Positions 16,209 through 20,049 of a DNA stretch of 21,394 bases are shown piece after piece. The notes below the pieces were generated by a model, which was not told the DNA's origin, did no database searches, and saw only the letters and a program-made list of their open reading frames with translations. Position numbers and translations under genes: made by a program. This DNA comes from a virus, in UHGV virus genome UHGV-0175408; one strand, given 5' to 3'. Each line of letters starts with the position of its first letter. The stretch's first letter is position 1.

Positions 16209-16237
16209 TTGACAACATGAATAGGTAAACCTATTAT
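16209..16237 (+). promoter_or_regulatory. Near-consensus sigma70 promoter (TTGACA-N17-TATTAT) with overlapping palindromic operator; pL-like
   Basis: -35 TTGACA and -10 TATTAT with a 17-bp spacer containing the perfect palindrome aataggt-aa-acctatt (16220..16235), which shares the CCTAT/ATAGG half-site with the cro/cI operator. Confidence 0.6.
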
Positions 16238-16286
16238 CATGACATAAGTATCGAACTCACCAAAACAATTATAGAGGATGAGGAAA

Positions 16287-16697
16287 ATGTCATCGTATAT
16301 GGGGTTACCAACAAATCAACACGATGCTCTTGAGAATATTCAACTCTTAGTAGGGGCTGGAGCACTACTGTATAGCAGCAATAACCCTGAGTTAATTGAA
16401 CTTGCCAGCTCCATCCTGGCTGTAACTCAAAAATATAGCCTCACCGCGTCGCGTTCATGCAAACAAAATTTAGCCATTAATTCACAGAATCGGATTCGCA
16501 CCCAACGCGAAGCCTGCGGCTTAACAACCGCCGAACTCGCCAGGCTGCTCGATCTCGATGAAGAAATCATCATCCAGTGGGAAAGCGGAGAGTATGAACC
16601 AACTATCAGTATGCTTATCCCACTGGCAAATGTTCTTGGTTGCGACCCGATGTGGCTGTTAACCGGTAAACCAACAGCTGGAGATACTTGCGCATGA
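16287..16697 (+). CDS. XRE-family HTH protein (first gene of the early-left operon)
   Basis: C-terminal HTH (GLTTAELARLLDLDEEIIIQWESGEYEPTISMLIPLANVLGCDPMWLL); the track starts at 16278; the second ATG has better ribosome-binding-site spacing. Confidence 0.6.
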   Translation: MSSYMGLPTNQHDALENIQLLVGAGALLYSSNNPELIELASSILAVTQKYSLTASRSCKQNLAINSQNRIRTQREACGLTTAELARLLDLDEEIIIQWESGEYEPTISMLIPLANVLGCDPMWLLTGKPTAGDTCA

Positions 16698-17059
16698 AAA
16701 AGTTCGAAAACATAACTGTTCTCCATGTTGATAACTTTGATTATACAAACCAGGAATTTCTCCCGGAGGTTGTAAAGGCAATAGATGTAGCCGATATAGT
16801 GATTAGAGGAAAGAGAATTGTCAAAAACAGGCTCGCATGCACTTCAGGAGCAATGACAGAAACAACCCCACAGCAAGATGATTATGAAGGCATTTGTCTG
16901 GAACCGGACTCATTTGCGGTAAATGTTTATCATTTATTGCATGCAACACAGGTATTACATATGTCCAGTAATAACGAAATAAAAACACTCGGCAGCGAAA
17001 TTCTGAATTTTGCATGTGAATATGCAAAAGCTGCTGCCGAAAAAGAACTAGCGCAATAA
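16694..17059 (+). CDS. Hypothetical protein
   Basis: ATG overlapping the upstream stop (ATGA); 121 aa; no recognisable motifs. Confidence 0.5.
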   Translation: MKKFENITVLHVDNFDYTNQEFLPEVVKAIDVADIVIRGKRIVKNRLACTSGAMTETTPQQDDYEGICLEPDSFAVNVYHLLHATQVLHMSSNNEIKTLGSEILNFACEYAKAAAEKELAQ

Positions 17060-17257
17060 CAACAAACATGCTCTGAACGTTTATTACGGTTTTATCGCCG
17101 GGGATTGTTACAACCTTTATTCATAGAGGGAACTCAGTTATGACTTTCCTGAAAAATAAGGCATCGTATAAAACTGCCTGCCTCATTGCACAACATGGAG
17201 ATTCTTATCTTCATATAGCCAACCTGTATTTGCGCAAAGCATATGGGAGATAAATAA

Positions 17258-17446
17258 ATGAAAGAAAAACAACAGAACATAACACATAAAAAAGTAAGAG
17301 TGTTGCTAACCATTGAAAATGGTGAAGTAATTTACTCAAAACATCTGTTGGATAATGAATTCGTTGGCTGCATGGATACATTTCTGTGGATGGCAAAAAG
17401 AGCTGGCTACACGATTATTCCACCAGCAAAGGAGCAAACATTATGA
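17258..17446 (+). CDS. Hypothetical small protein
   Basis: 62-aa ORF with GGGAGA ribosome-binding site; stop overlaps the next start. Confidence 0.5.
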   Translation: MKEKQQNITHKKVRVLLTIENGEVIYSKHLLDNEFVGCMDTFLWMAKRAGYTIIPPAKEQTL

Positions 17447-18024
17447 ATCATTCAGAGTTCCGACCAGAAGTTACGCCACATGGCATAAAAATTGGCAATA
17501 CAACCATTGATTATGTTGAGGCCGTACAGCGGCTTAATGATGGTGAATACGATAATCCATACTGGCACGGGTTAAGAATCATGCAATGTATTGCAGAAGC
17601 TGATGATGCCGGACTGCTGGGCAAATTTTCAGTCGATATGAAGGTTGCCCAGTGGCGCTGGCTATATGTAGCGAAATTTATCAGTGAAGTGGAAGACAAG
17701 AACGGCACCATTGATATCCCTAACGATAACGGAACTACAGATCGCGCAGTTATTTATAAGGGGAAGCATGGTTGCATGAGTATATACCCAGGACCACTTC
17801 GCATTGCCCTGCAAAACCATGTCGAATGGGGATTTATTGAAAAATATGGTGAAGCTGAAGGCATGGGGCGAGTTCTGTTTCTCTATCAAAAAATGCTCAT
17901 CGCAGATCCTAATAATGGTTTCATTGTCTCTGCTATGGGGCGCGAAGGGCTTGAACTCCTTCTGGATGAAATGATTCACGATCTGAATACTCATGGTATG
18001 CCAGAAGCGCCAGTGACACATTAA
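17443..18024 (+). CDS. Hypothetical protein
   Basis: Start taken at the ATG (MNHSEFRPE...) preceded by AAGGAG; 193 aa; no recognisable motifs. Confidence 0.55.
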   Translation: MNHSEFRPEVTPHGIKIGNTTIDYVEAVQRLNDGEYDNPYWHGLRIMQCIAEADDAGLLGKFSVDMKVAQWRWLYVAKFISEVEDKNGTIDIPNDNGTTDRAVIYKGKHGCMSIYPGPLRIALQNHVEWGFIEKYGEAEGMGRVLFLYQKMLIADPNNGFIVSAMGREGLELLLDEMIHDLNTHGMPEAPVTH

Positions 18025-18200
18025 ATATTAAGAAGAATATAATTCTTCCGTTTTTTACTAACCGTTTATATGAAAAGCAACCGTGAATTAAGCAGAGTAA
18101 AACTGCTTTTAATCCTTGCCACAGTACTGACACTAACAGAAATCATTATTCTCTTTATTGCGCTGTCAGTCAGTTAAAAATATCGGGATGCAACAAACCA

Positions 18201-18389
18201 ATGAGATTGTATTTCAGAATAGTAATTTTACTGGCAATTATCGCATGCATTTACGGACTACTCGTCCCGTTCCTTATATCCATGAAGGATACGGTAGCAG
18301 TCATTTCCGGCTTTGCACTGGCGTTTCTGACCCCGCCCTGCATTTATGCCATTTACAAGGGTCTTTCTTTCACTAAGGGTAAAAGATGA
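18201..18389 (+). CDS. Small two-TM membrane protein, coupled to the downstream SPFH lipoprotein
   Basis: 62-aa hydrophobic ORF; stop overlaps the lipoprotein start (ATGA); an alternative overlapping frame (18158..18376) is less protein-like. Confidence 0.5.
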   Translation: MRLYFRIVILLAIIACIYGLLVPFLISMKDTVAVISGFALAFLTPPCIYAIYKGLSFTKGKR

Positions 18390-19213
18390 AAAAAGTTATT
18401 TTTGCTTTAGCCATTGTTCTTCCGACCATTGGCCTTGTCGGTTGCGATCGCGTTGAACCAGGTAATGTTGGCATCAAGGTAAATAAACTGGGCGACGACA
18501 AAGGCGTCGGTGAAGTGGTTGGCGTTGGCCGCTACTGGACCGGCTGGAATACTGAAGTTTACATCTTCCCGACCTTCAAACAAATGAAGACCTACGATGA
18601 ACCGTTCAGTTTCCAGATGAGTGACGGTACAACCATCGGCTATCACATCGGCGTGGCCTACAAAGTTGACCCATCCAAAGTTACCACGGTGTTTCAGACC
18701 TACCGCAAAGGCGTGGATGACATTACCGACACCGACCTGCGTCAAAAGATCGCCGACGCACTCAATCGACTGGCCAGCAAAATGACCACCGACAAATTTA
18801 TCGACGGCGGCAAGTCTGAACTGCTGGATGCAGCTCTTAAAGACATTCAGGCAGAAATGACGCCCATCGGTATTCAGGTAATGAGCCTCTCATATGTGGG
18901 TAAGCCGGAGTACCCGCCAACCGTTATCGACAGCATTAATGCCAAAGTCACGGCGAACCAGAAAACACTGCAGCGCGAGCAGGAAGTTAAACAGCGCGAA
19001 GCGGAAGCCAACATGTTGCGCGCGGAAGCTGCCGGACAGGCTGATGCGATTCGCACAAAAGCCCAGGCTGAAGCCGATGCTATTCGTTTACGCGGTGAAG
19101 CTCTGCGCCAGAACCCCGGTGTTATGGAGCTGGAAGCCATCAATAAATGGAACGGCACACTGCCGCAATACATGACCAGCGGCGCCAGTACACCATTTAT
19201 CCAGGTTAAATAA
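18386..19213 (+). CDS. SPFH/Band-7 (stomatin/prohibitin/HflKC-like) domain lipoprotein, predicted inner-membrane anchored
   Basis: 275-aa ORF; signal peptide with lipobox LVGC followed by Asp at +2 (inner-membrane retention); central SPFH-like region; Ala/Glu/Gln-rich coiled-coil C-terminus (REQEVKQREAEANMLRAEAAGQADAIRTKAQAEADAIRLRGEA) resembling HflK/HflC tails. Confidence 0.7.
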   Translation: MKKVIFALAIVLPTIGLVGCDRVEPGNVGIKVNKLGDDKGVGEVVGVGRYWTGWNTEVYIFPTFKQMKTYDEPFSFQMSDGTTIGYHIGVAYKVDPSKVTTVFQTYRKGVDDITDTDLRQKIADALNRLASKMTTDKFIDGGKSELLDAALKDIQAEMTPIGIQVMSLSYVGKPEYPPTVIDSINAKVTANQKTLQREQEVKQREAEANMLRAEAAGQADAIRTKAQAEADAIRLRGEALRQNPGVMELEAINKWNGTLPQYMTSGASTPFIQVK

Positions 19214-19253
19214 CTTATATGCCCGGCGACCTGCCGGGCTAAGGGAAAAGCAG

Positions 19254-19625
19254 ATGAACACCCATAATACCCAACCGCAAATAATGAACTATGATCCGAA
19301 TCTGACGTCATGCGGACGCATGGCAAAACAAACCGTTCGATTAACTTTCGGACTATGGGAATACCGCGAAACATTCGAAGTTACTGTCGGCGGCAATCTG
19401 ACCGGACTGGATGTTATCAGTTGCGCTATTGAAAGCCTGTACGCAACGCTGCCTTATGAAGAAGTCGAGGATGAGCGCACAGGGGAAACAGATATCATGG
19501 CCACCATTAATATTGGCGAACTGATATGTCAGGATGAAGACCTGTCCGGAGAACTCTGGCTTGCCGGGATGCTTATCTCAGCAGAAATTATCAGTATTGA
19601 ACCCGCTACAAACATACGGCTCTGA
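19254..19625 (+). CDS. Hypothetical protein
   Basis: 123-aa ORF with AAGGGAAAAG ribosome-binding site; acidic; no recognisable motifs. Confidence 0.5.
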   Translation: MNTHNTQPQIMNYDPNLTSCGRMAKQTVRLTFGLWEYRETFEVTVGGNLTGLDVISCAIESLYATLPYEEVEDERTGETDIMATINIGELICQDEDLSGELWLAGMLISAEIISIEPATNIRL

Positions 19626-19656
19626 AGTTCTCACTATTCAGAGAGCAGGAGAAAAA

Positions 19657-19899
19657 ATGTTCGCTTTGATTAATCAAGGGCAACTGTATACCGACAGTGC
19701 CGGTTACCCGATAAAAATTATTCGCTGCATAAACAACACTGTGTTGTACAGAAGAATGGATGGGCGAACACAATCTGTAAAAATAAGCGATTTTAATGAA
19801 TCGTTTGAACGGATAGATCACCAGGAATACCGACAAATTCTGGCAGAAACAGAGCTGGAAGCTCATCTGAAAAAATTACGAGCCATGAAAAGGAAATAG
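19657..19899 (+). CDS. Hypothetical small protein
   Basis: Start taken at the internal ATG (MFALINQ...) preceded by AGGAGA; 80 aa; the track ORF extends to 19534. Confidence 0.45.
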   Translation: MFALINQGQLYTDSAGYPIKIIRCINNTVLYRRMDGRTQSVKISDFNESFERIDHQEYRQILAETELEAHLKKLRAMKRK

Positions 19900-19902
19900 A
19901 GA

Positions 19903-20049
19903 ATGAATAAAGCATTTGAGCTATGGGTACGCCAGCGTTACGGCAATCGCTATGACCTGACGCGAGACGTTGACGGCTTCTACTGTCGTGAAGTTGTGAG
20001 GCGAATGTTTGAAGTGTGGTGCCACTGCCGTGGGCTGAATGTTGTGTGA
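19903..20049 (+). CDS. Possible small ORF (48 aa) upstream of xis
   Basis: ATG with AAGGAAA upstream; MNKAFELWVRQRYGNRYDLTRDVDGFYCREVVRRMFEVWCHCRGLNVV; below the ORF-track size cutoff. Confidence 0.3.
   Translation: MNKAFELWVRQRYGNRYDLTRDVDGFYCREVVRRMFEVWCHCRGLNVV

Follow-up and report, generated by a model that had tools for sequence, protein, structure and literature searches.

The interval 16209–20049 of the virus genome UHGV-0175408, analysed here within a window of 21,394 nucleotides (the whole stretch of DNA at its full length), is probably the early-left operon, repressor-controlled and of PL type, of a temperate phage from the phiP27 family, with products that would serve the phage cycle and not a standing immunity. 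The original prediction had described this interval as a cluster of about nine uncharacterised genes between cI and xis, in a position often occupied by prophage defence or exclusion cargo. The nine open reading frames (ORFs) of that description (genes 1 to 9 in the following) are all present on the + strand, and they are also called by the Prokaryotic Genome Annotation Pipeline (PGAP) in the RefSeq record of a 99.9%-identical Escherichia coli chromosome, with different starts for gene 1 (16287) and gene 2 (16853). With two additional small ORFs, the count between cI and xis rises to about eleven. The flanking genes were also recovered as described, a repressor with helix-turn-helix (HTH) and Peptidase_S24 domains on one side, a PHROG excisionase and a tyrosine integrase on the other, and so were the two products recognised at the outset, the XRE-type HTH protein (gene 1, HTH_3 8e-12) and the SPFH lipoprotein (gene 6, Band_7 8e-31).

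Sequence comparison assigns the window to a phiP27-family prophage of E. coli. It corresponds to a prophage of the porcine enterotoxigenic E. coli (ETEC) strain ETEC1732, with 98.8% identity across most of its length and 99.9% across 15000–21394. Positions 16496–20052 are 95.4% identical at the nucleotide level to the Stx2e-converting phage phiP27 and colinear with its genes L03–L10, which are mostly annotated as “unknown”. Gene order, orientation and the position between the repressor and xis/int are the same in phiP27 and in Stx1a, Stx2a and Stx2d phiP27-like phages, with proteins 92–99% identical; the nucleotide identity of the block with Stx2a/2d phages is 86%. phiP27 differs in its immunity module (cro, cI, the operators and, for gene 1, the N-terminal half), in an extra insert of ~580 bp that separates its gene 1 from gene 2, and in its xis and int, which belong to another type. 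When the 6.4-kb segment 15000–21394 (cro, cI and int included) was used as query, at least partial matches were obtained in 1,067 of 5,426 complete E. coli genomes, and parts of it were also present in Stx1a-, Stx2a- and Stx2d-converting phages. The closest genomes were from porcine ETEC and from bovine strains, and the same genes were also present in E. coli of commensal or environmental origin. The early-left block is already known, having been published with phiP27 and annotated in thousands of genomes.

The statement that most products are not recognisable was overstated, since DUF5406 (3.7e-22) and DUF4222 (2.6e-15) domains were detected, all the ORFs of the block, the two additional small ones excepted, matched a PHROG family (1e-23 to 1e-114), and the identity to phiP27 L03–L10 reaches 95%. 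The part of the statement that stands concerns function, the PHROG labels reading “unknown function” for all products except the regulator, the membrane pair and xis.

The promoter TTGACA-17-TATTAT (16209..16237, + strand) matches the sigma-70 consensus at 11 of 12 positions and is the top-scoring one in 14600–21394. It follows a cI-like repressor gene (15449–16141, +) encoding an HTH and a Peptidase_S24 (LexA-like) domain, which is closed by an intrinsic terminator (16164..16190, +; stem-loop at 16164–16182 with an 8-bp GC-rich stem and a 3-nt loop, then a T8 run) and faced by a cro-like gene of the YdaS family (15087–15329, −). The perfect palindrome AATAGGTAAACCTATT occupies positions 16220–16235, in the spacer and −10 element of the PL-type promoter, and a copy matching it at 13 of 16 positions is located at 15360–15375 in the cro-cI intergenic region, over the leftward PR promoter, which we read by eye as TTGAAT-17-TAATAT. 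A search with the palindrome pattern gave three matches (two of them being both strands of the perfect palindrome), against 0.14 expected by chance. We then compared 80 related loci, picked as the best matches to gene 6. Each immunity type had a promoter at the equivalent site, 280–336 bp 5′ of the gene-1 HTH domain, with its own distinct palindrome. The near-consensus promoter of the original prediction was thus confirmed in its sequence, and operator control of this 16209 promoter is computationally well supported by its palindrome common with the PR region and, most strongly, by the heteroimmune relatives, each of which has a palindrome of its own over the corresponding promoter.

This arrangement resembles the PL operon of lambda in several respects: a repressor-controlled promoter lies beside cI, has operators in common with PR and is transcribed away from cI through small accessory genes, the operon ends with xis-int, and Ead/Ea22 and DUF551 genes are found in the same slots of relatives. 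Unlike lambda PL (N, ea, cIII, kil, gam/bet/exo, xis, int), however, no N, nut/boxA, cIII, kil, gam, bet or exo was detected here in profile and boxA scans, no intrinsic terminator was predicted inside the operon and the first gene encodes an XRE HTH protein. None of the products matched N, kil, cIII or exo/bet/gam in Pfam, PHROG or NCBIfam. The absence of an N-like antiterminator had been noticed before, and we found neither an N-family match in the Pfam and PHROG profiles nor a boxA on the operon strand, the sole boxA-like match (21108, minus strand) being at chance level. A prediction scan for terminator-like sites found none on the + strand between 16182 and 20880, and an Rfam scan (E ≤ 1) of 14500–21394 gave just two chance-level matches. 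Since the + strand shows no predicted canonical intrinsic terminator from the promoter to int, an N-type antiterminator would not be needed; together with the lack of an N-like product and of boxA, this makes a single N-independent transcript running into xis-int plausible. In the lysogen, the LexA-like repressor would bind the palindromic operator overlapping the near-consensus promoter, and its cleavage would allow a single transcript to extend for ~4 kb across the eleven small ORFs as far as xis and int. Apart from the 16209 promoter, just one promoter-like site was detected on the + strand, inside gene 2, and it matches the consensus at 9 of 12 positions. Because it lies behind a repressor-controlled promoter without a conserved internal promoter, the block should be silent in the lysogen.

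This expected silence in the lysogen, unlike the situation of rexAB or sieB, is one of the arguments that make it unlikely that at least one of these genes is prophage defence or superinfection-exclusion cargo protecting the lysogen, the idea put forward in the original prediction. The candidates for such a role would be the set of membrane products (a 35-amino-acid (aa) transmembrane (TM) peptide, a two-TM protein and the SPFH lipoprotein), the HTH protein with gene 2, or the pair formed by a 62-aa and a 193-aa protein. The position of the block indeed matches that of the rex/sieB and ea genes of lambda, gene content varies among relatives and three membrane-associated products follow each other in a row. 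However, profile scans detected no nuclease, ATPase, nucleotidyltransferase, TIR or other effector-type domain. The comparison with PADLOC that had been proposed as a check (PADLOC-DB v2, a library dated 2023 that newer systems would escape) gave only generic HTH matches, all with gene 1 (among them the RmrA N-terminus and CapH), and none for the other nine annotated products or the 35-aa peptide, the additional 37-aa ORF being left out; beyond this generic regulator domain, no defence-system model was matched.

Comparison of the related loci shows that the genes of the operon form a mosaic of exchangeable cassettes. The core in relatives comprises the XRE regulator, the 37-aa ORF with the 62-aa protein, the two-TM protein with the SPFH lipoprotein, the DUF4222 protein and a 48-aa protein, whereas three cassettes are optional, namely gene 2, the DUF5406 gene, and the 193-aa protein accompanied by the 35-aa TM peptide. 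The variable slots of relatives contained ORF6N antirepressor-like, Ead/Ea22 and DUF551 genes and insertion sequence (IS) elements, with no recognisable defence systems, and the nine alternative ORFs from these slots had no match in PADLOC either. This content of the slots in the 80 relatives also argues against defence cargo.

Within the block, conservation is highest for the SPFH cassette. Gene 5 (18201..18389, +) encodes a 62-aa protein with two hydrophobic segments, the predicted two-TM partner (phrog_1130, 1.5e-23), and gene 6 (18386..19213, +), which it overlaps by ATGA, encodes an SPFH/Band-7 lipoprotein followed by a coiled coil (Band_7 8e-31; phrog_200, 5.5e-114). The match to PF01145 (107.8 bits against a cut-off of 23.6, residues 22–208) places gene 6 in the SPFH/Band 7 superfamily. 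Gene 6 was 97–100% identical in 80/80 related loci, whereas the neighbouring genes were 44–100% identical or absent, a contrast that is partly built in, the loci having been chosen by gene 6 similarity. Gene 5 accompanied gene 6 wherever upstream DNA was available. In the loci without gene 4, homology 5′ of gene 5 ends at the gene 5 start codon, which argues that the cassette carries no conserved promoter of its own. A GC-rich hairpin without T-run, GCCCGGC-GACCT-GCCGGGC (19222–19240, +), is located directly 3′ of the SPFH gene and may be an mRNA-stabilising or processing element.

Homologues of gene 6 were found in 668 phage records, many of them from lytic phages. The carriers include the N4-like Erwinia phage S6, the rV5-like SPLA5a, KNP2 and AV124, Bruynoghevirus TL, Bcepfunavirus Maja, Kayviruses, phiCbK-like phages and haloviruses, and gene-5 homologues are located directly 5′ of the SPFH gene in S6, SPLA5a, Maja, KNP2 and AV124. 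The phrog_200/phrog_1130 pairs of Erwinia phage S6 (gp044-gp045) and Burkholderia phage Maja (gp114-gp113) correspond to the same cassette, with adjacent or overlapping genes, SPFH proteins 38–70% identical to gene 6 and a common motif in the two-TM protein; they differ in that these phages are lytic and carry the cassette among early genes. The two-gene cassette is present in many temperate and lytic phages of Proteobacteria, and SPFH homologues alone also occur in Gram-positive and archaeal viruses. SPFH homologues with 76% identity were also present on many contigs of ~110 kb, the size of phage-plasmids (P0299, P0302, P0305), one of them (P0302) encoding a variant without the lipobox cysteine (IIGYDR).

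The cassette being common to lytic phages, it probably serves the phage's own cycle, and it looks like a phage life-cycle membrane module and not like defence cargo expressed in the lysogen. Its presence in lytic phages is nevertheless also compatible with exclusion, lytic phages being known to encode exclusion proteins that are early membrane proteins or lipoproteins, such as Imm and Sp of T4 and Llp of T5. Exclusion during infection is possible for the membrane genes. The proposal that the block is defence cargo nevertheless found no positive evidence, with only a generic HTH match in PADLOC, an SPFH cassette present in lytic phages without conserved promoter of its own, and slots filled by ea-type genes or IS elements. 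Given the repressed promoter and the occurrence of the SPFH cassette in lytic phages, the block resembles a usual set of early-left accessory genes that would act in induction or infection.

The lipobox of gene 6, read from the sequence as MKKVIFALAIVLPTIGLVGC|DR, is LVGC with Asp at position +2. Lipoproteins with the lipobox [LVI][ASTVI][GAS]C and Asp at +2 are retained in the inner membrane, and such a location can be provisionally proposed for gene 6. Together with its two-TM partner, the SPFH lipoprotein would most likely assemble into an oligomeric scaffold resembling HflK/C, on the periplasmic side of the inner membrane. The products would act during induction or infection; as candidate roles, the cassette might preserve membrane integrity or maintain the proton-motive force, control proteolysis at the membrane, or exclude a second phage while the infection proceeds. 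Gene 6 resembles HflK/HflC and the products of SPFH-NfeD operons in that a Band_7 domain is followed by a coiled coil, in its predicted periplasmic, membrane-anchored location and in being encoded with a small membrane protein. In contrast to HflK/HflC, which form an SPFH cage around FtsH, its anchor is that of a lipoprotein instead of an N-terminal TM helix, and there is a single SPFH gene without K/C pair. Unlike in SPFH-NfeD operons, Pfam and NCBIfam scans found no NfeD domain in gene 5 (62 aa, two TM segments).

These similarities raise a second alternative, in which the SPFH lipoprotein would be a phage mimic of HflK/HflC altering FtsH proteolysis so as to bias the choice between lysis and lysogeny, a functional counterpart of lambda cIII in the same operon position. 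HflK and HflC are indeed the nearest characterised relatives of gene 6 (NCBIfam 1e-5 to 6e-5; PDB HflK 1e-3, residues 114–240), the periplasmic topology predicted from the lipobox and from textbook topology fits HflK/C and not the cytoplasm-facing QmcA/YqiK, and lambda cIII is also located in the PL operon. The scores were, however, far under the NCBIfam equivalog cut-offs (24.7 bits against 134 for HflC, 22.7 against 159 for HflK), and the cassette is common in strictly lytic phages, in which there is no lysogeny decision. Moreover, no lambda-type CII (PF05269) was seen in the profile results, the “CII-like” PHROG label of gene 1 being an automated name. We therefore consider this mimicry quite unlikely. 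Such mimicry had already been put forward, as a speculation, for Burkholderia phage CSP3 (PMC10269572), and recent papers either consider the function of phage SPFH proteins unclear or speculate on Hfl-like effects (PMC13239085; PMC10269572). In the papers searched, up to 2026, on phage SPFH function or on SPFH proteins in anti-phage defence, we found speculation only and no tested function (PMC13239085).

A bolder version of the life-cycle module would make of 18201–19213 a phage-wide two-gene cassette building an infection-dedicated HflK/C-like periplasmic cage, and of the 193-aa product of gene 4 a new fold with a new activity; this is possible, though doubtful. Such a cage would, for example, shield the inner membrane or FtsH substrates, or block the DNA entry of a second phage.

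Returning to the interpretation of the block as an early-left operon that serves the phage cycle, several points weigh against it. The choice of the 80 related loci as best SPFH (gene 6) matches skews the sample to the SPFH cassette, and the promoter scan covered the sigma-70 consensus only; low-level or condition-specific transcription of internal genes may occur in the lysogen. A weak AT-rich hairpin, GAAGAAT-ATA-ATTCTTC followed by CGTTTTTT (18033–18056, +), located 3′ of gene 4 and unflagged by the terminator scan, could attenuate read-through with its T6 run. The Asp at +2 of gene 6 is followed by Arg at +3, and the homologues in other phages have Y, E or S at +2, so that sorting to the inner membrane is less certain. 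Finally, the mechanistic part is drawn from family membership and gene context, and two AlphaFold2 (AF2) models of the block had no fold match.

The first two genes of the operon have a domain in common, which in gene 1 is linked to the immunity type. Gene 1 (16278..16697, +) encodes the XRE-type HTH regulator (HTH_3 8e-12 over residues 73–127; phrog_4836, 7.8e-51). Its N-terminal helical domain (16278–16490; phrog_4587, 1.8e-7) changes with the immunity type, whereas the C-terminal HTH domain is conserved. Since homology with phiP27 DNA begins at 16496, which corresponds to the gene 1 domain boundary, and since gene-1 alleles follow cI alleles among relatives, the N-terminal domain appears to behave as part of the immunity module. 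Gene 2 (16694..17059, +; phrog_5451, 5e-81), optional in relatives, overlaps gene 1 by ATGA, and the C-terminal half of its product (residues 58–121; 16865–17059) also matched phrog_4587 (1e-28). Direct comparison of the two proteins by BLASTP gave E=0.001, and both results indicate that the C-terminal half of gene 2 and the N-terminal domain of gene 1 are paralogous. A third copy of the phrog_4587 domain was observed in relatives as a stand-alone ORF of 74 aa (L051:3005-3229).

Besides the overlap between genes 1 and 2 (16694–16697), ATGA overlaps are present between genes 3 and 4 (17443–17446) and between genes 5 and 6 (18386–18389). These three overlapping pairs suggest translational coupling, hence two-protein complexes. 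A toxin-antitoxin interpretation of the gene 1/2 and gene 3/4 pairs was set aside, no toxin or antitoxin family being matched. We also set aside gene 1 as an equivalent of lambda CII, this XRE HTH gene being located in the PL and not in the PR operon and its label being an automated PHROG/GenBank name.

Two small ORFs were unannotated in the RefSeq and phiP27 records examined. The first (17140..17253, +) encodes a small basic protein of 37 aa, MTFLKNKASYKTACLIAQHGDSYLHIANLYLRKAYGR, and is preceded by GAGGGA. It was present in nearly all related loci covering the region, including alleles with an in-frame deletion of two codons; the 22 alleles contained zero stop codons, with 13, 7 and 24 variable sites at the first, second and third codon positions, respectively. 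It always accompanied gene 3, whose Shine-Dalgarno sequence overlaps its final codons. The second (18070..18177, +) encodes a conserved peptide of 35 aa with a single predicted TM segment, MKSNRELSRVKLLLILATVLTLTEIIILFIALSVS. It was intact, without stop, in 23 alleles, and codon position 2 varied least. In the 80 loci, this ORF and gene 4 were found together in 49 cases and both were missing in 27, gene 4 being alone in the other four. Neither small ORF had a match in Pfam, NCBIfam or PHROG. A type I toxin-like arrangement at the 35-aa ORF is conceivable but unsupported: no match was found in Pfam, NCBIfam, PHROG or Rfam, and the two minus-strand promoter-like sites at 18173–18142 are weak (9/12), in a region with fewer promoter-like sites than shuffled sequence.

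Gene 3 (17258..17446, +), encoding a basic protein of 62 aa (phrog_340, 3e-24), was present in nearly all relatives covering the region, as alleles 44–100% identical. It is followed by gene 4 (17443..18024, +), an optional cassette encoding the acidic protein of 193 aa, which belongs to a small family whose named members come from Enterobacteriaceae, e.g., Escherichia and Citrobacter. A confident AF2 model of gene 4 had no match among solved folds, and PDB sequence searches with genes 2, 3, 4, 7, and 8 gave nothing below E=0.1. In Citrobacter prophages (L088/L089/L090, 5582–6579), an overlapping gene for a basic protein of 140 aa precedes the gene-4 homologue, and in some E. coli relatives (L051, 4363–4755) a homologue of this 140-aa protein fills the gene-4 slot instead. 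This exchange corresponds to cassette shuffling within one slot.

In the distal part of the operon, gene 7 (19254..19625, +) is an optional cassette encoding a very acidic DUF5406 protein (pI 4.1; PF17400, 3.7e-22, 79.2 bits against a cut-off of 25). DUF5406 homologues mostly begin with MNYDPN, which suggests 19284 as the likely true start. The family extends to Pseudomonas and Burkholderiales, and in the one such prophage context examined (Stutzerimonas) the gene is again near int. As for gene 4, a confident AF2 model of gene 7 had no match among solved folds. Gene 8 (19657..19899, +) encodes a small basic DUF4222 protein of 80 aa (PF13973, 2.6e-15, 56.2 bits against a cut-off of 27). RgdR (ECs1581) of enterohaemorrhagic E. 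coli (EHEC), which is likewise small, basic, prophage-encoded and endowed with a DUF4222 domain, matches the same profile with 2.1e-23 and 82 bits, and gene 8 can be considered a distant member of the RgdR family from its profile match. RgdR differs by its length (99 aa), by its location in a P4-like cryptic prophage and by its RGD motif, aligned to QGQ in gene 8. This motif is needed for RgdR to activate type III secretion (PMC3378721). Gene 9 (19903..20049, +), encoding a basic protein of 48 aa (phrog_3871, 3e-35), was found in nearly all relatives covering the region, with codon-position variation of 7/8/20. The accessory block ends at the excisionase gene (20058..20267, +; phrog_2917, 1.5e-40), followed by the integrase gene (20222–21394, +) with Phage_integrase and Arm-DNA-bind_2 domains.

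The relationship with RgdR suggests a third alternative, in which factors for lysogenic conversion or for the modulation of virulence would be encoded in the block, with the DUF4222 protein acting like RgdR on host regulons (type III secretion system, motility) and the SPFH lipoprotein being a host-facing, immunostimulatory factor like PM0222. RgdR, a prophage DUF4222 protein, activates LEE1 and represses motility (PMC3378721; PMC10877973), and it provides a precedent for a DUF4222 regulator; the closest genomes being those of porcine ETEC and bovine strains points in the same direction. PM0222, an HflK/C-like lipoprotein of a Pasteurella prophage that is needed for mouse virulence (PMC9872710), is a second precedent, to which gene 6 can be likened by description. 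However, gene 8 is just 30% identical to RgdR, over 27 aa, and has QGQ instead of RGD; the genes lie behind a repressed promoter and the same genes are carried by commensal and environmental E. coli. Conversion or virulence modulation by this block is thus very unlikely.

Elsewhere in the window, a full-length porin gene (7622–8719, +; Porin_1 7.7e-155; named OmpC by PGAP) has the Q antiterminator gene and a gene for a DNA methyltransferase as its neighbours (flanks at 8909–9292 and 5774–6820, both −), in what we take to be the site of stx2e in phiP27. It looks like a conversion gene of the lc/nmpC type, and receptor change or exclusion would be attributed to it more readily than to the PL operon. 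The prophage also carries a tRNA-Gly gene (anticodon TCC, 5439–5513, −), downstream of that for the methyltransferase. The Rha-like gene and cro are separated by a BssS-family gene on the opposite strand (14685–15002, +; PF13991, 8.4e-15), itself followed by a terminator-like hairpin at 15031–15059.

The result chiefly clears away a false lead: the block corresponds to the early-left region that is standard in a widespread family of E. coli prophages, Stx-converting phages among them, and not to a recognisable defence island. The remaining interest would reside in the SPFH cassette across phages, the two missed small ORFs, the domain common to genes 1 and 2 and the two confident models without fold match. 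The two conserved small ORFs are missing from the current annotations of thousands of genomes. The recurrence of the immunity-linked domain of gene 1 in the ATGA-overlapping gene 2 hints that the phiP27-type switch, on which Stx phage induction depends, has an additional layer of regulation. As for the SPFH cassette, it counts as one of the phage accessory modules without assigned function that are more widely distributed, and this prophage offers a tractable E. coli setting for it.

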